From Patescibacteria group bacterium (GTDB lineage Bacteria > Patescibacteriota > Microgenomatia > PFEM01 > JAHIFH01), in contig DATKWU010000004.1 of NCBI GenBank assembly GCA_035529375.1, positions 1 through 59,331 on the forward strand: a stretch of DNA of 59,331 bases, written 5' to 3'. The notes under the pieces are model-generated. The model did not search any database, was not told the DNA's origin, and saw nothing but the letters and a program-made list of their open reading frames with translations. Positions 2,878 to 55,857 of the stretch are shown one piece after another. The translations under genes and the position numbers were made by a program. How positions within the stretch are numbered: the first letter of the stretch is position 1; each line of letters begins with the position of its first letter.

Positions 2878-4346
2878 GAAAAATTATGACCCAGCCCTGG
2901 TTTCTCTTAGGCCTAATTTTACTTTTGGGTTTAGGTTTGCGCTTGTACAAAATCGACATTCCTTTGGCCGACCACCATTCCTGGCGGCAGGCCGATACCG
3001 CGGCCGTAGCCCGGAATTTTATTAAAGAAGGTTTTGATTTCTTTCATCCCCAAATTGACAATATGGCGCCGATTGCCAAAGAAATGGTTTTTAACCCCCA
3101 GCGCTATTTCTTGGTTGAACCGCCCATTTACCAAACCTTGGTGGCCGGGGTCTATGCTCTTTTTGGCGTCCAAGAAAAATTCGCCCGTTTAGTGACCATT
3201 GGTTTTTCTTTGGCCGCCATTGGTTTTCTTTATTTATTGGTCAAAAAATTAATTAATCAAAGGGTGGGTTTATTAGCCGCCTTTTTCATGGCGATTCTGC
3301 CTTACAGTGTTTATTATTCCCGGGTGGTTCTGCCGGATATGGAAATGCTTTTCACCTCGATGGCCATGCTCTATTGCTTCATTCTTTGGTTGGAGAAACA
3401 AACCTGGCAACGTTTTGCTTTGGCTGTCCTTTTTGCGGCCTGGGCTTTAACTCTAAAAATGTTTCCTTTGTTTTTAGGCATCCCTCTGTTTTATTTAGTC
3501 TGGCGTCGGTGGGGCTTCAATTTTATTCGCCAAAAGAAATTATATTTATTTCTCGCTCTGGCGCTTTTGCCTTTAATGGCCTGGCGGCTTTGGATTACCC
3601 AATTTCCAGAAGGGATTCCGGCCAATATCTGGTTATTCAATCTTTACGGGATTCGCTTTCGGCCGGCTTTTTTCCGTTGGATTTTTGCGGAAAGAATCGG
3701 CAAATTAATTCTGGGTTATTGGGGTCTGCCTTTGTTGGTTTTAGGTCTAATGCTTAAACCTAGCAAAAAAGAGGGCTGGTTTTTTTATTGGTGGCTGCTG
3801 GCTTTTCTGGCTTACGTCACCGTTTTTGCGACCGGCAATGTCACCCATGATTATTACCAGATTCCTTTTATCCCGATAGCCGCGGTTTTCTTGGCCAAAG
3901 GGACTGCTTGGCTCTTAAAAGCCTCTAAACAATCCTTTTCCAAGATGATTAGCTATCTTGTAATTGCCATCTGTATTCTTTTTATGTTTGGCTTTTCCTG
4001 GTATGAGATTGAAAGTTTTTATCTGATTCAAGGCGGCGTTGATTTGGCCGGTTTGGCGGTTGATGAACTTTTGCCTCAAAACGCCCTAATTTTGACCGGT
4101 GATTCCAATGACGCCACCCTTTTGTACAATACCAATCGCTATGGCTGGACCGGCGGTTATGCTTCTAATATTCCCAATGAAAAGGAAGCCTTTAACAAAG
4201 CCAGGGAAAGAGGGGCGGAATATTACGTCACCACCAAAGTCAACGAATTAAAAAACACTGAGTTTGGCCAATTTCTTAATGAATCGAAATTAATTAAAGA
4301 AACCGACCAATACGTTATCTTTGATATCCGACTTAATCGCCAATGA
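2874..4346 (+). CDS. GT-C fold membrane glycosyltransferase (ArnT/PMT-like, GT39/83)
   Basis: Multi-TM, WRQADTAAVARNF, EPPIYQ, YYSRVVLPD, HDYYQIP motifs. Confidence 0.8.
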   Translation: MRKIMTQPWFLLGLILLLGLGLRLYKIDIPLADHHSWRQADTAAVARNFIKEGFDFFHPQIDNMAPIAKEMVFNPQRYFLVEPPIYQTLVAGVYALFGVQEKFARLVTIGFSLAAIGFLYLLVKKLINQRVGLLAAFFMAILPYSVYYSRVVLPDMEMLFTSMAMLYCFILWLEKQTWQRFALAVLFAAWALTLKMFPLFLGIPLFYLVWRRWGFNFIRQKKLYLFLALALLPLMAWRLWITQFPEGIPANIWLFNLYGIRFRPAFFRWIFAERIGKLILGYWGLPLLVLGLMLKPSKKEGWFFYWWLLAFLAYVTVFATGNVTHDYYQIPFIPIAAVFLAKGTAWLLKASKQSFSKMISYLVIAICILFMFGFSWYEIESFYLIQGGVDLAGLAVDELLPQNALILTGDSNDATLLYNTNRYGWTGGYASNIPNEKEAFNKARERGAEYYVTTKVNELKNTEFGQFLNESKLIKETDQYVIFDIRLNRQ

Positions 4347-49998: not shown

Positions 49999-50036
49999 TC
50001 CTAACTAAGAGAGGGAGTAAAGTCAAGGAGGGAAGA

Positions 50037-50390
50037 GTGGGTAGTCAAGAGGTCTTCAAGGACTCTTTCTGTAAGAGTCGTCAAGTGGCTGAGGAAATCA
50101 TGTCAGACTTTGCCGCGAGGGCATTCGACTATAAGGGAGCAGAGCTTGTAGTCAAGTTTGAGATGAGGATGAGAATGAGGATGGATTTGGCCATTCGAAG
50201 GGTATCTACGCAGTCTGAGAAGTTGGGATATCTTTTTGGCTATATCAAGGCCGTGAATGGTCTCTTTGAGATAGCGAATAAGAGGCCGAACGCTAACGCG
50301 AACGAGTTGTCTGAAGAATTCAGGAACCTTTTAGCTGTAGCTCAAATACAGCTTCCTGAATATTCATTTTCGGATTCCTTTCTGGAATAG
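50037..50390 (+). CDS. 117-aa helical orphan protein
   Basis: Start reassigned to GTG 50037 after SD aaggagg. Confidence 0.7.
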   Translation: MGSQEVFKDSFCKSRQVAEEIMSDFAARAFDYKGAELVVKFEMRMRMRMDLAIRRVSTQSEKLGYLFGYIKAVNGLFEIANKRPNANANELSEEFRNLLAVAQIQLPEYSFSDSFLE

Positions 50391-50474
50391 AAGCATTTAC
50401 TCCCTCTCTCATCCTCTCTTATTCTTCGTGTAAATATTGACAAGTGTGAAAAAATTTGTTACTTTGATTAGACA

Positions 50475-50728: not shown

Positions 50729-51559
50729 ATGGCTAAACAGATTGTTGATATTAATATAAACGAGCTTCAATCAAACCCCCTTCAGCCGCGAGGTGTGGTT
50801 ACTCCCGAGTCCTTAGTTGATTTAATTGAGTCGATTAAGGAACATGGTATTCTTGAACCTTTGGTGATTGCCAAAACTCCGGCTGGCTATCAAATTATTG
50901 CTGGTGAACGTCGCTGGCGGGCGGCTAAATCGGCTGGTTTGGCGACAGTGCCGGTCATCATTAAAGAAACCTCGCCTCGGGGAATGTTAGAAATGGCTTT
51001 GGTGGAAAATGTTCAGCGGGAAGATTTGAATGCTCTTGATCGGGCCAAAGCTTTTATTAGGCTAATTGAAGAGTTTGGTTTAACCAACAAAGAAATATCT
51101 AAGAGAATTAGTAAAAGCTCTGCTTACATTTCCAATTCGATCAAATTGCTTTCTTTACCTGATGCTCTCAAGGATGGTCTTTTGTCTGGTTTGATTACTG
51201 AAGGTCATGCTCGGGCTTTATCCTCAATTGACGATACTAAATTAATGATTGAGGCCTACAAAATTATTCTTCGTGAATCTGGTTCAGTCCGGAGAGCTGA
51301 AGAAGTGGCTCGGCGAATTAAGAAAAAAGGTAAACAGCCTTCTAAAACAAAGACGGCGGAGAGACCTCTAATCGTTTCTGAAGAGACAGATAAAGTTCAG
51401 GAAGATCTTCATCGGGCTCTTGGTGGTGAAGAAGATGTCCATGTCAAGTTAACTCGTTCTCGCGCCCAAACCAAACTCTACATTGTTCTCAAAGGCAACA
51501 CGAAAAAGACAGAAGATAAACTTCAGAAGATTTACCGCGGGATTACCAAAGCAAACTAA
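50729..51559 (+). CDS. parB: ParB/Spo0J partition protein
   Basis: NPLQPR, SIKEHGILEPL, IIAGERRWRAA, ALVENVQREDLN, HTH. Confidence 0.95.
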   Translation: MAKQIVDININELQSNPLQPRGVVTPESLVDLIESIKEHGILEPLVIAKTPAGYQIIAGERRWRAAKSAGLATVPVIIKETSPRGMLEMALVENVQREDLNALDRAKAFIRLIEEFGLTNKEISKRISKSSAYISNSIKLLSLPDALKDGLLSGLITEGHARALSSIDDTKLMIEAYKIILRESGSVRRAEEVARRIKKKGKQPSKTKTAERPLIVSEETDKVQEDLHRALGGEEDVHVKLTRSRAQTKLYIVLKGNTKKTEDKLQKIYRGITKAN

Positions 51560-52113
51560 TAGTCAACCCTTCTAATAATTCCAACTCTGTCAACCGGCCA
51601 GTAACGAAGCCAAACTTTACCGACAATATTCTTTTCTGGAACCGTCCCCCAATCTCGAGAGTCTGAACTGTAGGGCCGATTATCACCAGAAACAAAGTAT
51701 TGATTTTCATCAAGAGTAATACTTTGACCTGATTGCCAGAAGTGACCAGCGCTGGTGCAAAGATTTTCAGGTAAATACTCTTCTTCTAAAATCTGGCCAT
51801 TGACAAGAATATGACAATTTTCTACCTTAATGCTGTCTCCGGGCAGACCAGTAATTCTTTTAATGTAATCATATTTTTCATTCCCTGGAGCCTTAAAAAC
51901 AATTATATCACCCCTTTTGGGTTCGCTTAATTGATAAGTGATTTTATCAGTTAAAAGATATTCTTGATCCTGAAAATTAGGATACATAGAATTACCTCTG
52001 ACTTGATGGGGTTGAAAAAGAAAGAGATACATCAAAACGAAGATTGCCAGAGCAATTACAAAAGTTTCAACGATATCGAGAAAGAAGCCACCAATCTTCC
52101 TGAAAAAAACCAT
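51556..52113 (-). CDS. lepB: Signal peptidase I
   Basis: GNSMYPN, YIKRITGLPGD, GDNRPYSSDSRDWG; start 52113 or 52122. Confidence 0.95.
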   Translation of the reverse strand: MVFFRKIGGFFLDIVETFVIALAIFVLMYLFLFQPHQVRGNSMYPNFQDQEYLLTDKITYQLSEPKRGDIIVFKAPGNEKYDYIKRITGLPGDSIKVENCHILVNGQILEEEYLPENLCTSAGHFWQSGQSITLDENQYFVSGDNRPYSSDSRDWGTVPEKNIVGKVWLRYWPVDRVGIIRRVDY

Positions 52114-52178
52114 ATGAAACAATATTATTCTTCTTTAAATTGTCTGTAAAGCCTGAATTTGCTAAAATCAAGAGTGAT

Positions 52179-52252
52179 GGGTGATTAGCTCAGTTGGTTA
52201 GAGCGCTTCGTTCACATCGAAGAGGTCGCAGGTTCGAATCCTGCATCACCCA
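52179..52252 (+). tRNA. tRNA-Val (anticodon CAC), CCA not encoded
   Basis: Acceptor gggtgat/atcaccc, D-arm tagctcagttggttagagc, anticodon arm cttcg-ttCACat-cgaag, T-arm gcaggttcgaatcctgc; discriminator A followed by CTA. Confidence 0.95.
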
Positions 52253-52294
52253 CTAATTTATTTCTCTAGTTAATAATTAATTATGGAAGGAAGG

Positions 52295-52470
52295 GGGGGG
52301 AAAGATCTGGGAGGGAGGAGAAGGTTCTGTGTGGTGATGAACGTCAGGATTTGATTCGCACCCAAGACCAAGCACCGGGGGCACAGGACCAAACAAGAGT
52401 CCCGTTCCTCCTTGCGATGAACAGCAAGGAAACGAACCTCCTCACACGGACCCTCCCAGATTTCAAACTA
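52295..52470 (-). ncRNA. Candidate structured ncRNA (or micro-ORF mRNA), unassigned family
   Basis: 11-bp end pairing 52305-52315/52451-52461, internal stems, no long ORF; minus-strand promoter TTGACT-18-TACAAT at 52579-52550. Confidence 0.4.
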
Positions 52471-52594
52471 TCTTATAGGCAACCTCCTTTCGCATCGAGC
52501 CAAAGGAACCGCTTTGATTCCTGGAGATTGACTAGTTGTCAAGGATTTCATTGTAGCAAATGGAAATTAGAGAAGTCAAGGCAGAAACTCTAGA

Positions 52595-52644
52595 GGGGAC
52601 ATCATGGGCTGTTCTGGCGGCTGAAAGTGCCACATTTTGTCCCC
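52595..52644 (-). repeat. 3' structured repeat of cassette A (terminator-like)
   Basis: ggggaca...tgtcccc outer stem with internal tgttctggcggc and tgccac; similar copy at 53220-53267. Confidence 0.8.
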
Positions 52645-52664
52645 CCTTTTTTGTTTGCCTATTC

Positions 52665-53096
52665 CTAAGTACCCGTGTAGAGGGCATAGCTATTCTTTGC
52701 CATGATGATAGTACCCATCCCTACCGAGAGACTCAGGATGAAGCCAGTTGAGTATGTTGGAAGGAAAGCAGCGATGACAACCCCAGAGACAAAACCCAGG
52801 ATTATCAGTATGATCGAGATGGCGGCCAAGATGAGGACTAGGAGACAGCCTTCTTCTTCATGCTTTCCAGTGTCCAGGTAGATCATTAGGGTCCAGACCA
52901 GATAGCCTAGAGGGATATGCACCCCCCAGAACATTCCGATCCGGAACGTTCTCTCCTGCCATTCTCCAAGGGCAGCTGAACCCGCGAAGAGAGCGAGGAG
53001 AAGAAAGATGATAGAGCAGAAGACCATCGAGATGCGCCATTCCCATCTATGCGATTCTACTATCCGAAGCTGTTCATGCAGACTCCATTTGCTCAT
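52665..53096 (-). CDS. 4-TM orphan membrane protein, paralog 1
   Basis: SD aggagg; motif FxxGxxxGxxxPxGxxV shared with paralogs 2 and 3. Confidence 0.8.
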   Translation of the reverse strand: MSKWSLHEQLRIVESHRWEWRISMVFCSIIFLLLALFAGSAALGEWQERTFRIGMFWGVHIPLGYLVWTLMIYLDTGKHEEEGCLLVLILAAISIILIILGFVSGVVIAAFLPTYSTGFILSLSVGMGTIIMAKNSYALYTGT

Positions 53097-53115
53097 CCTA
53101 CCTTCCTCCTATCTC

Positions 53116-53175
53116 AATGTGCCACCAGAACAAATTAAGTATATTTAAAAAAGACTTCTAAGTCAATATTATGGG
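53116..53175 (-). repeat. 60-bp promoter/leader repeat, copy A (TTGACT-17-TATACT + leader)
   Basis: 57/60 identical to 54237-54296. Confidence 0.92.
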
Positions 53176-53219
53176 AATATAGATTAAGAATTTATTAATA
53201 TTAATTTGAAGTGTTAGAA

Positions 53220-53267
53220 GGGGACATTGCGTTGTTTTGGTGGCGAGAGCTGCCACGCTTTGTCCCC
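53220..53267 (-). repeat. 3' structured repeat of cassette B
   Basis: ggggaca...tgtcccc with internal ttgttttggtggc and tgccac. Confidence 0.8.
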
Positions 53268-53284
53268 TCCTTGTTTGTTGGCTG

Positions 53285-53695
53285 TCAGCCTTTATTGAGA
53301 ACATTAGAAAACTCAATGATCATTAAACCTCCTGCGATACTGACGGCGTACCCCCAAAGCATTATTCTTGGGGCTACCAGTATTAGGACGAAGCCAATCG
53401 GTATACCAGCTATGATCATTCCCAGGCTGCCGAAACAGACAAAACAGCCAAGGAACCAGCGAAAGGTGTTGTCTGGGTTTTTTATCGGTGCTATCGCATT
53501 GAATATGATATAGACAAATCTTCCCGCTGGAGAGATTGTTCCGACCATTACACCGGCCAGGAACAAGTTACTCATACCTTCTTGTATCTCCTTTGGTATT
53601 CCTAAAAATAAAAGGAGAGTTACAAGAACGACAACAAAGCAGTAATAGATTCTCTTGGCCCTTCTCTCTAGTCTATCTACATCTTCTTTTTTCAT
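53285..53695 (-). CDS. 4-TM orphan membrane protein, paralog 2
   Basis: Start reassigned to ATG 53695 (MKKEDV) after ggaga; shared motif. Confidence 0.8.
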   Translation of the reverse strand: MKKEDVDRLERRAKRIYYCFVVVLVTLLLFLGIPKEIQEGMSNLFLAGVMVGTISPAGRFVYIIFNAIAPIKNPDNTFRWFLGCFVCFGSLGMIIAGIPIGFVLILVAPRIMLWGYAVSIAGGLMIIEFSNVLNKG

Positions 53696-53723
53696 GGTCT
53701 TCTCCGATCTCAAAACATCATGT

Positions 53724-54194
53724 CTAGTCTTCCTTACATTTATGAGGGTCATCCTGAGAGAGCTGATATAAGCTATAGCTACCCCTTGCCATTTCGATGA
53801 TCCCTACCCCTAGTGAGAGGGTAAAGATATAGCCAATAAGGCTCATTTTTGATTGAAACAAAAGAGGTAGGCCGATTCCAAAGATTGGTCCTAGAGCTAT
53901 TATAATTATCCCAACTATGAGAATAAGGAATGGGTCTGAAACCTTCCCTCTTAGGAATAGGGCTATGTTACAGACCAGAAAGCCGGTGGGAGTGACTAAC
54001 CCCACTAGCATTCCCCCTAGAAATGAACTTTCTTGCAGGCATTCGGGGTAGTTAGCCATAAATGTGAGGAAAGCGACTAGAAGGAACAGGACAGAATAGA
54101 AGACAACTACAATGTTTTGCTCCTGTTTTTCATCCCTCATCTCTCTTTTGAGGATCCGATAGCGATCTTTCAATTTCAGATTCTTGACGGACAT
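53724..54194 (-). CDS. 4-TM orphan membrane protein, paralog 3
   Basis: SD taaggag; shared motif; C-terminal MARGSYSLY matches MAKNSYALY of paralog 1. Confidence 0.8.
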   Translation of the reverse strand: MSVKNLKLKDRYRILKREMRDEKQEQNIVVVFYSVLFLLVAFLTFMANYPECLQESSFLGGMLVGLVTPTGFLVCNIALFLRGKVSDPFLILIVGIIIIALGPIFGIGLPLLFQSKMSLIGYIFTLSLGVGIIEMARGSYSLYQLSQDDPHKCKED

Positions 54195-54236
54195 CGGTTT
54201 CTCTCCTTATTGTCAGGTATCAGGTATTAACAAGTG

Positions 54237-54296
54237 AATGTGCCACCAAAACAAACTAAGTATATTTAAAAGAGACTTCTAAGTCAATATTATGGG
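54237..54296 (-). repeat. 60-bp promoter/leader repeat, copy B
   Basis: See 53116-53175. Confidence 0.92.
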
Positions 54297-54385
54297 TAAT
54301 ATTTGATTTGTTAAATATGGCTCTATTTGATAAAATTTAAACAGGTACGGATATAGTTTAGATGGACAGAGGGCAGGAGGAAAGA

Positions 54386-54610
54386 ATGAGAGGCGAGGGT
54401 AGTTCAGAGTTGGCAACGCGTATATTTCTATCATTCATGGTATTTGTGGGTTTCGGGATAGCAGGTTTTGGGATTGTAAAGAGCTACAATCTAGTAGGAA
54501 GCTCTGCTATCATTATCCTCGTCATTGCCATGATCATGGCTTTCTTGATTGCCTACAAGGTCTTAGATCCAGGTCTTGCTAGGAGAATCAAGGAAGCTAA
54601 GAAACGCTAG
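54386..54610 (+). CDS. 74-aa two-TM orphan membrane protein
   Basis: ATG 54386 after SD ggagg; promoter TTGTTA-17-TAAAAT (54308-54336); hairpin 54632-54689 downstream. Confidence 0.7.
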   Translation: MRGEGSSELATRIFLSFMVFVGFGIAGFGIVKSYNLVGSSAIIILVIAMIMAFLIAYKVLDPGLARRIKEAKKR

Positions 54611-54697
54611 AAAGGCACATTAACATGCTTCAAGGGGGGAGTCAATGTCAATGTAGATATTGACTGCATGTATAAACTCAAACCCCCTTTCCGCTTT

Positions 54698-55072
54698 TTA
54701 TTCTATTTCATAAGATTGGAGAAGATAGTCTTGAATAATGCGAAGATTTTCTTCTATTTCAGTTGGAGGAAGAGTAAATTTCTTCCAAATTTCTAAATGT
54801 TTTTCTAGAAGTGAAAGATTAAGAATTAACTGATAAGTTTTAATTTGAGCCTTTTTATTTTTACCATTTTCAAATTAGTTTGAACCTTTTGAAGTTTTGA
54901 TATTCGCCCAAACATTTACCACCATCAAAGCAATCAAGATTGAAAGCAAGGCAATGAGAACCTGTCTGAATTCAATATTATTGTAGAGAAAATCAGAATG
55001 AATAAAATAGAGTATTCCATTAAGAATAAGAGCAACCCCAATAGCAAAAAACTTTAAAACAATTATATTCAT
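54698..55072 (-). pseudogene. 124-codon membrane-protein ORF interrupted by one in-frame TAA (54875-54877)
   Basis: The 65-aa ORF continues in the same frame for 58 more sense codons (FENGKNKKAQIKTYQLILNLSLLEKHLEIWKKF...SYEIE) to TAA 54698-54700. Confidence 0.6.
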
Positions 55073-55167
55073 TTAAATGAGCGGGTTTTTATTTTGAAGA
55101 ACAAAATATTGATCAAAACTGTCTTCCCGCTCAAGAACTGTTCTAATACAATATTTCTATTCATTTC

Positions 55168-55277
55168 TTGACAACTTGTGAAAAGGGTGCTACGGTAAGT
55201 TTAATGGGGTAAGTTTACTAAAACTCCACACGTCCGTTAAGGGGAAGTTTTTTGGTCCGCTGAAAGGCGGATTTTTT
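55168..55277 (+). promoter_or_regulatory. Promoter (TTGACA-17-TACGGT) and structured 5' leader with internal terminator
   Basis: ggtaagttta x2 (55194, 55208); stem 55220-55251; terminator tccgc-tgaaag-gcgga-T6 (55256-55277) before the SD of 55311. Confidence 0.55.
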
Positions 55278-55310
55278 ATTGGAATTTTTAAAGAAAGGAG
55301 GTGAAAAAGA

Positions 55311-55857
55311 ATGAAAAAAATATTTTTTGTTTTAATGAGTCTGGTCTTAGTATTTGGATTAGCTGGTGTCGTTAGAGCTGAAGTAAACCCTGTAACACCC
55401 AGCACGAACGATATTAATCGTACAAATGAATGGGCTCATGTTGATCAGCTCAGTATGGGCGTAGGAGAAACGGATTTACAATTCATCAGTACAAGGAACT
55501 TTTATAGTTGTTTCGAATATCGAACTGACGGTGATACCAGTCAGGTGATCGCAGAAAACGGTGGAGTAAACTACAACACTAACATTACTGATGGTTTGTA
55601 TCCTTACTACTGCCAGAATAACAACAGTAGTACCCATACTATCAATGCTAACGAATATGTTGAAATCCGTATGGTATTTGGAGCAGAGACAGATGAGCGT
55701 TTTGACTGGACAAGATTTGATGTACTGACAGTTCCGACAAAAGCAGATGTTTTAATGGACAGTGGCGTTCCGGGGGGATGGTTTAGAAGATGCCCCTGGT
55801 TTACAAAAGCCATTTAATCCTAAATCTAAGGCAGGTGATCACGCTGGGATGAAGTAG
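55311..55857 (+). pseudogene. Secreted protein with +1 frameshift in a G6 run (55772-55777)
   Basis: Signal peptide MKKIFF..VRA; removing one G gives the tail GVPGDGLEDAPGLQKPFNPKSKAGDHAGMK* ending at 55857, instead of the track's 168-aa form ending at 55817. Confidence 0.6.

Follow-up and report, generated by a model that had tools for sequence, protein, structure and literature searches.

Pairing between the two ends of an mRNA as a means of controlling its lifetime is known but, to our knowledge, rarely documented, nearly all cases coming from mutagenesis of single genes. In the hbs mRNA of Bacillus subtilis, the 5' untranslated region (UTR) engages with the region preceding the terminator in a 14-nt interaction of -19 kcal/mol, which has been proven in vivo by compensatory mutants and which limits cutting of the leader by RNase Y (Braun, Durand and Condon 2017, PMC5737220). 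Here we describe two sister cassettes, A and B, on the minus strand of a 59,331-nt stretch of DNA (the window; contig DATKWU010000004.1 of assembly GCA_035529375.1) from an uncultured Patescibacteria group bacterium, in which the predicted first nucleotides of the transcript are complementary to a target inside a 3' hairpin. This complementarity covaries among related cassettes, and we consider it rather probable that it represents an RNA-level long-range helix that buries the 5' end, that is, a bacterial 5'/3'-UTR interaction most like that of the hbs mRNA and documented here by natural covariation.

Similarly to hbs, the putative helix is short and (nearly) perfect, with 11-13 nt and -13 to -20 kcal/mol, and joins the 5' UTR to the 3' UTR by the terminal hairpin; the host likewise encodes RNase Y and RNase J, and the effect that we propose is a restraint of decay from the 5' side. 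It differs in that the hbs 5' arm lies inside a structured leader over an RNase Y site, whereas here it is predicted to be the very start of the transcript, in that the hbs partner lies just upstream of the terminator, whereas here it lies inside the loop of the 3' hairpin, and in that hbs was established with mutants, whereas the evidence here is natural covariation. With the hok/Sok (tac-fbi) and aapA/IsoA systems (PMC6733600, PMC5416894) the cassettes share the pairing of the extreme 5' end with the 3' end, a coupled covariation across the whole family and a membrane protein as the product. Unlike the hok and aapA toxins, however, this protein is two to five times longer (136-163 vs usually <60 amino acids (aa)), the Shine-Dalgarno sequence is not sequestered, and neither a metastable 5' hairpin nor an antisense RNA was found. 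Pairing of the 3' UTR with the 5' UTR inside one mRNA molecule is also known for icaR of Staphylococcus aureus, likewise a host with RNase III, where a UCCCC anti-Shine-Dalgarno motif of the 3' UTR pairs with the Shine-Dalgarno sequence and blocks translation (PMC3868564). In our case the target pairs with leader nt 1-11 instead of a downstream GGAGG, and the icaR design fails because the Shine-Dalgarno sequence lies outside the helix. Finally, as in invertons, inverted repeats of 11-13 bp surround a functional unit; unlike in invertons, there is no adjacent recombinase gene and no inverted allele in the contigs examined, the promoter is not enclosed by the repeats, and one of the arms is part of an RNA hairpin.

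The genome is small: the assembly amounts to 844 kb in 19 contigs at 95% completeness, and the window is its contig C4. Each cassette would form one transcription unit composed of a promoter, a 5' block at +1, a Shine-Dalgarno sequence, one or two open reading frames (ORFs) for membrane proteins and a 3' hairpin, with the following parts:

54237-54296, minus strand: cassette B promoter repeat, 60 nt, running into the 5' block; -35 TTGACT at 54287-54282, -10 TATACT at 54264-54259
54254-54242, minus strand: cassette B 5' block UUGUUUUGGUGGC, the full pairing arm
54242-54252, minus strand: core of the cassette B 5' block, GUUUUGGUGGC, predicted transcript nt 1-11, from which pairing can be extended to 54254
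53724-54194, minus strand: ORF B1, 156 aa, four-helix membrane protein of the family, 39% identical to ORF A
53285-53695, minus strand: ORF B2, 136 aa, divergent family member, second cistron of unit B
53216-53271, minus strand: cassette B 3' hairpin, outer stem GGAGGGGACA/UGUCCCCUUC, -27.2 kcal/mol
53251-53256, minus strand: GUGGCA in the cassette B hairpin, previously called a decoy
53244-53232, minus strand: cassette B 3' complement GCCACCAAAACAA, which can pair with UUGUUUUGGUGGC
53234-53244, minus strand: core of the cassette B target, GCCACCAAAAC, complement of the B 5' block, extending to 53232
53116-53175, minus strand: cassette A promoter repeat, 60 nt, running into the 5' block; -35 TTGACT at 53166-53161, -10 TATACT at 53143-53138
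53132-53121, minus strand: cassette A 5' block UGUUCUGGUGGC, the full pairing arm
53121-53131, minus strand: core of the cassette A 5' block, GUUCUGGUGGC, predicted transcript nt 1-11
52665-53096, minus strand: ORF A, 143 aa, four-helix membrane protein with no Pfam or PADLOC match
52592-52647, minus strand: cassette A 3' hairpin, outer stem AGGGGGGACA/UGUCCCCUCU, -26.5 kcal/mol
52628-52633, minus strand: GUGGCA in the cassette A hairpin, previously called a decoy
52621-52610, minus strand: cassette A 3' complement GCCGCCAGAACA, which can pair with UGUUCUGGUGGC
52611-52621, minus strand: core of the cassette A target, GCCGCCAGAAC, complement of the A 5' block with one U.G pair

The two arms of cassette A form 12 bp including one U.G, and those of cassette B form 13/13 perfect bp. 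Unit B is bicistronic, so the pairing arms flank a whole operon and not single genes. The original prediction, a note made from these letters alone, had quoted the block and 3' element of both cassettes, all of which we found on the minus strand, and had pointed to a C-G pair in A that is a U-A pair in B; this indeed turned out to be the sole difference in the part of the helix that is specific to the long-range pairing. Both the 60-nt promoter repeat (57/60 positions, or 95%, identical between A and B) and the hairpin pattern occur in exactly two copies in the genome.

To these two cassettes (winA and winB) we added seven from metagenome contigs, found via relatives in large protein collections, which makes nine independent cassettes in total: winA, winB, L007 (the same as L008, L009 and L019), L010, L011, L013, L021, L014c1 and L014c3 (the latter two being the same as those of L015-L018 and L020). 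Protein identity to ORF A across this family ranges from 87% down to 22%, and all nine members share one anatomy: a sigma-70-type promoter, a block ending in GUGGCAC, a Shine-Dalgarno sequence, an ORF, and a 3' hairpin with the complement of the block. No homologue of ORF A was found among 60 related genomes, and pattern scans of the metagenome and genome collections, one of each, yielded nothing beyond loci that were already known. Scanning 400 genomes of the class for the pattern produced a single match, inside an 812-aa helicase ORF, which we rejected as a chance match.

Covariation was counted on an ungapped alignment of both arms of the nine cassettes. The complement measures 11-13 bp in the window and 11-15 bp in the seven relatives, and 98 of the 99 cells of its 11-bp core are paired, with an A.C in L021 as the one that is not. 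At pair 13-52, five cassettes have U-A and four have C-G, and at pair 12-53, seven have U-A and two have C-G, so that two positions are fully compensatory; three other core pairs change to G.U only. The claim of real 5'-3' pairing, made from the two window cassettes, is thus strengthened by the seven others, which contribute the second covarying position and several of the G.U-only changes, and independent variation of the two positions of a pair was not found in any of the nine. The six pairs that are specific to the long-range helix (GUUCUG/CAGAAC and variants) are paired in 53/54 cells and include both compensatory positions. When the 3' partner is moved out of register by 1-3 columns, pairing falls from 86.7% to 26-54%, and the observed covariation score was reached by 0/500 shuffles. 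Counted by descent, there are approximately two clean double substitutions in the core and two in the first flanking pair, which is G-C in L014c3 and L021. The covariation support for the helix is real, though based on few events, and selection on the 5'-3' complementarity is supported by these alignments.

Chance is unlikely to account for the complementarity, because perfect complements of this length are so rare in random pairings: when 82 nt upstream of the start codon were paired at random with 90 nt after the stop codon across 632 crude transcription units of this genome, a perfect complement of at least 13 nt arose in 0.03% of pairings and one of at least 11 nt in 0.2%. A protein-binding site shared by the two ends is unlikely as well, because the two paralogues of a single genome each keep their own matched variant, C-G in A and U-A in B.

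The position of the helix fits a function at the RNA level. The outermost invariably paired base is a G located 6-7 nt after the -10 hexamer in 9/9 cassettes; in L013 and L021 the promoters are unrelated to that of winA (33/62 and 33/61 identity) and yet this core G is kept at the same spacing, while pairs upstream of it are inconsistent across cassettes. Promoter geometry thus fits the core G being the predicted +1. This refines the previous proposal, which had placed the start of the blocks 5-6 nt after TATACT and equated it with +1: the core G does stand at the predicted +1, but the full blocks of A and B start 4-5 nt after TATACT and the core 6-7 nt after it. Since there is no obvious DNA-level reason for a repeat to end at +1 or for its arms to bracket the whole of operon B, both features fit an RNA helix. 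Downstream, a gap of 24-46 nt separates the helix from the start codon. The Shine-Dalgarno sequence, which follows the helix after 8-14 nt in most cassettes and after a longer distance in cassette B, is not part of it. Within the 5' leader itself we found no conserved local partner for the block, and the consensus fold of the leader is essentially empty.

At the other end, the 3' hairpin is a genuine RNA structure, because its outer stem covaries in turn. Compared with shuffled sequences, the hairpins are unusually stable (z -3.05 for A and -5.36 for B); in the seven cassettes that could be aligned, the outer stem is 97% paired and three of its pairs have changed on both sides (e.g. GGGGACA/UGUCCCC, GGAGACA/UGUCUCC and GGGGGCA/UGCCCCC), and L013 and L021 show one more C-G to U-A exchange. 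By eye, a U tract after the hairpin was seen in 0/9 cassettes, and a terminator-like scan of 51500-55500 listed neither of the window hairpins; the next promoter or tRNA gene follows closely after each hairpin.

In how the hairpin treats its target, our results depart from the original prediction, according to which a GUGGCA decoy pairs locally with GCC(A/G)C and the 3' end thereby switches between two states. A GUGGCA is indeed present within each GGGGACA/UGUCCCC hairpin of the window (52633-52628 and 53256-53251), is kept in eight of the nine cassettes (GUGGUU in L014c3) and can pair with GCC(A/G)(C/U). In the local minimum-energy folds of seven cassettes (winA, L007, L010, L011, L014c1, L014c3 and L021), however, it pairs wholly or mainly 3' of the target, which itself stays in the apical loop. 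Barring the target from local pairing has a cost of 0-3.4 kcal/mol, compared with -13.3 to -19.9 kcal/mol gained by an 11-bp duplex with the 5' block. Because the cost is so low relative to the duplex energy, the local fold resembles a scaffold that presents the target more than an equal competitor. The two-state switch is thus unsupported as it was stated; a true bistable switch is possible, with no computed support.

How could such a helix act? In the mechanism that we propose, mRNA nt 1-11, with the consensus G(U/C)(U/C)(C/U)U(G/A)GUGGC, would pair with the complement displayed in the upper loop of the 3' hairpin, closing the mRNA end to end and burying its 5'-triphosphate nucleotide in the helix. 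The hairpin would present the target and the 5' end would dock, probably via an unpaired CA(G/A)(A/G)AC(A) toehold, a step that probably melts only the weak upper part of the stem. 5'-terminal stems protect mRNAs from decay. By analogy, the helix could shield the 5'-triphosphate and the nucleotides at the very start from attack by RNase J and RNase Y. As such protection would require the 3' hairpin to be intact, how long the message lasts would be coupled to the integrity of its 3' end. Genes for RNase J (401.7 bits), RNase Y (503.4 bits) and RNase III (241.7 bits) are present in the genome, each scoring above its curated cut-off, and together make up a decay set of the B. subtilis type. The complementarity, its covariation and its placement behind the -10 box, the covarying 3' hairpin and the RNase genes are seen in the sequences; formation of the helix in the cell, action inside a single molecule and stabilisation of the message are what we infer.

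Several points weigh against this interpretation. The nine cassettes represent only ~4-5 independent lineages with ~4 compensatory events. The wobble asymmetry is a weak test, with three events favouring the sense strand and one (the A.C in L021) the antisense strand, and inverted repeats acting at the DNA level would likewise give Watson-Crick covariation. Start site, 3' end and pairing in vivo all rest on sequence-based prediction, and any effect on translation would have to be indirect, because the helix does not touch the Shine-Dalgarno sequence. In addition, the long-range helix is absent from the nested minimum-energy fold of 8/9 cassettes. Folding of full transcripts, which had been suggested as a check, predicted it in L014c3 only, where its ensemble probability is 76% as opposed to 0-2% elsewhere; forcing it raised the energy by 1.6-8.3 kcal/mol above the minimum in eight cassettes and by 15.9 kcal/mol in L014c1. 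These figures come from a nested-only model, in which pairing of a loop with the 5' end rules out the closed hairpin around that loop.

If the DNA level is taken seriously, the arms could be inverted repeats at which a site-specific recombinase flips the ORF segment against a fixed promoter, turning it on and off, with recombination keeping the arms identical. Repeats of 11-13 bp do flank each unit, the 3' arm of B and the 5' arm of A also bracket promoter A at a distance of 98 nt, the compensatory changes are all of the Watson-Crick type while the wobble asymmetry is weak, and the genome contains three tyrosine and two serine recombinase genes. These genes, however, reside on contigs C7, C9, C17 and C18 and none on C4, and all nine cassette types are in the ON orientation, with no inverted arrangement in the contigs examined; in the window's own population, at least three samples yielded a total of seven contigs with ORF A, and the three of these contigs that were examined match the window at 100% identity and in orientation. 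Moreover, the repeat ends at the predicted +1 in three promoter contexts and has its partner in the loop of a covarying RNA hairpin, neither of which a recombination site needs, and the variation that is G.U only (winA, L007, L010, L011) leaves the DNA arms imperfect. We consider this explanation unlikely.

To a similar degree we doubt that the 3' hairpin is released as a stable small RNA (sRNA) derived from the 3' UTR, the loop of which would pair in trans with the 5' ends of its own and paralogous mRNAs for feedback or cross-regulation. The display of the target in a hairpin loop, like an sRNA seed, would suit this idea, as would the stability of the hairpin (z -3 to -5) and the partial cross-compatibility of paralogues, given that the B 5' block forms a U.G pair with the A target and that L014c1 and L014c3 share their core. 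Nevertheless, each own pair matches at least as well as any cross pair, the A 5' block producing a C.A mismatch with the B target. In addition, the design is kept in the single-cassette genomes L007, L010, L011, L013 and L021, for which reason cross-talk between paralogues is not needed to explain it. Sequence cannot tell action in cis from action in trans.

Still less probable, in our view, is a fold-back of the hok/aapA kind, in which the full-length mRNA of a harmful membrane protein would be kept inert by the 5'-3' helix and become translatable after 3' trimming. Covarying pairing between the 5' and 3' termini is a hallmark of hok and aapA mRNAs (PMC6733600), and the products here are membrane proteins encoded by orphan genes. 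They are, however, proteins of 136-163 aa with four helices and not peptides of <60 aa, with no match to a toxin family in PADLOC or Pfam. The helix neither includes nor abuts the Shine-Dalgarno sequence, no conserved anti-Shine-Dalgarno element or metastable 5' hairpin was found, and there is no evident antisense RNA gene, the promoter-like matches on the plus strand being weak (9/12) and lying in the AT-rich promoter repeat. It is very improbable that the complementarity has no function at all, as a by-product of a GUGGCAC protein site that the two ends share or as what is left of a duplication that gave rise to the 3' element: part of this element does nearly repeat the second half of the 5' block (GUGGCACUUUCAG vs GUGGCACAUUGAG), and 5/11 pairs would follow from the local hairpin alone, but the six GUUCUG/CAGAAC pairs with both compensatory positions, paired in all cells except one, are absent from this internal GUGGCA copy. 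Two further readings were rejected by eye: a sigma-54-like promoter at TGGCAC, as there is no TTGC element at the right spacing, and an integron attC site, as RYYYAAC/GTTRRRY cores are missing, each cassette has a promoter of its own and there is no integrase in the vicinity.

The proteins themselves offer few clues. Family ORFs encode 136-163 aa with four to five predicted helices, and an AlphaFold model of a cargo protein (predicted local distance difference test score, pLDDT, 75) has five helices, for which Foldseek found no fold match in the PDB at E <0.2. No Pfam match exceeded the curated cut-off, ORF B1 reaching only a sub-threshold MFS_1 hit (21.8 vs 33.4 bits), and PADLOC returned no match for the cargo proteins. 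As to their arrangement, the two-cassette strain is present in JGI 3300031566 and ENA ERZ27256828 with 100% identity to the window over 2.1 kb (L024/L025), and the same two metagenomes hold a relative with a single A-type cassette and 85% protein identity (L009/L007). Cassette B is therefore a lineage-specific addition. In L014, an unrelated gene for a soluble-looking protein of 157 aa (3560-4120) lies between the two family cassettes; it has its own promoter and carries neither the 5' block nor the 3' hairpin design.

Promoters are considerably more alike than the proteins. Between cassettes whose proteins are 30-40% identical (window 53116-53175 and 54237-54296; L014 2920-2980 and 4135-4195), the promoter and 5' block are 85-95% identical, and the winA promoter block matches that of L014c1 at 53/62 positions. 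The repeat contains a palindrome, GACTT-AG-AAGTC, across its -35 box, which could be an operator for some regulator. The B target (53232-53244) and the A 5' block (53121-53133) form a 12/13 inverted repeat, 98 nt apart, around promoter A, and in a transcript reading through from B these two elements could pair with each other. Two more features lie at the borders of the cassette pair:

54362-54610, plus strand: divergent gene for a small membrane protein of 82 aa, upstream of the cassettes
52579-52550, minus strand: third promoter, TTGACT-18-TACAAT, strong, directly 3' of hairpin A and before a conserved non-coding stretch

The divergent gene may share a bidirectional promoter region with the cassette. 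Small divergent genes are similarly placed in relatives (75 aa in L007-L009, 69 aa in L014), the likeness being one of position and size only.

The non-coding stretch downstream of cassette A (52260-52579, minus strand) spans ~290 nt, is closed by a perfect 11-bp inverted repeat ATCTGGGAGGG (52305-52315 and 52451-52461) and is followed by a tRNA-Val gene on the plus strand and then by a signal peptidase gene. It is kept downstream of the cassette in L007, L010 and L011, ends before tRNA-Val, and has no Rfam match at E <=5, which makes it a candidate for a new structured RNA. In 51500-55500 as a whole (E <=5), only tRNA-Val reaches the Rfam threshold, and only tRNAs do so in L010, L013, L014 and L021. 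We also looked at this RNA as an antisense of the 5' block and rejected it: (C/U)AGAAC occurs in the window, L010 and L011, is absent from L007, and belongs to the RNA's own stem. A longer motif, CACCACA-CAGAACC, in the window (52290-52330, minus strand), L010 and L011 (UGCCACAUAGAACC in the last) could pair with the cassette 5' block with one bulge, a match that is probably coincidental because the motif is missing in L007 and is part of the same stem.

Complementarity between gene ends is not a general property of this genome, the longest complement averaging 6.64 nt in the 632 crude units compared with 6.59 nt in the shuffled-pair null; high-energy RNAduplex outliers were false ORFs over rRNA, tRNA or non-coding RNA genes. 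The perfect-complement outliers are two: cassette B with 13 nt and an orphan gene at 50037-50390 (plus strand) with 14 nt, cassette A falling below the threshold because of its U.G pair. The arms of the orphan gene (50008-50021 and 50396-50409) form a perfect 14-bp complement, the leader arm AGAGAGGGAGTAAA beginning ~9 nt after a -10 box and its partner occupying nt 5-18 after the stop codon. The gene is unrelated to the cassettes, 3 kb away from them, and has the same closed-end layout; no collection searched contained a homologue with which its arms could be compared.

A more speculative extension, which we regard as doubtful, is that promoter, +1 block and 3' hairpin make up a portable closed-loop expression chassis of candidate-phyla-radiation bacteria: a co-evolving UTR pair, duplicated together and reused around fast-evolving accessory genes for membrane proteins. 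The 7-9 nt of the target that are unpaired would then serve as a toehold through which the 5' end could enter the hairpin, but not before the 3' end is complete, acting as a completeness check or a lifetime timer. This idea fits the far better conservation of the promoter block than of the proteins, as well as the perfect end-to-end complement of the second, unrelated orphan gene in the window.

Taken together, we argue that evolution has carried out the compensatory-mutation experiment, in that the first 11 bases of the predicted transcript and the loop of the 3' hairpin have changed together across nine cassettes, two of them paralogues in a single genome. If the 5'-3' helix is what this reflects, end-to-end closure of mRNAs would also operate in uncultured bacteria with small genomes and a B. 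subtilis-like set of RNases, and it would be used for membrane proteins of ordinary size, beyond toxin peptides. A distinct geometry, with the 5'-terminal nucleotide buried in a hairpin loop, would then be possible as well, in a cassette that is compact and easily moved into a reporter.

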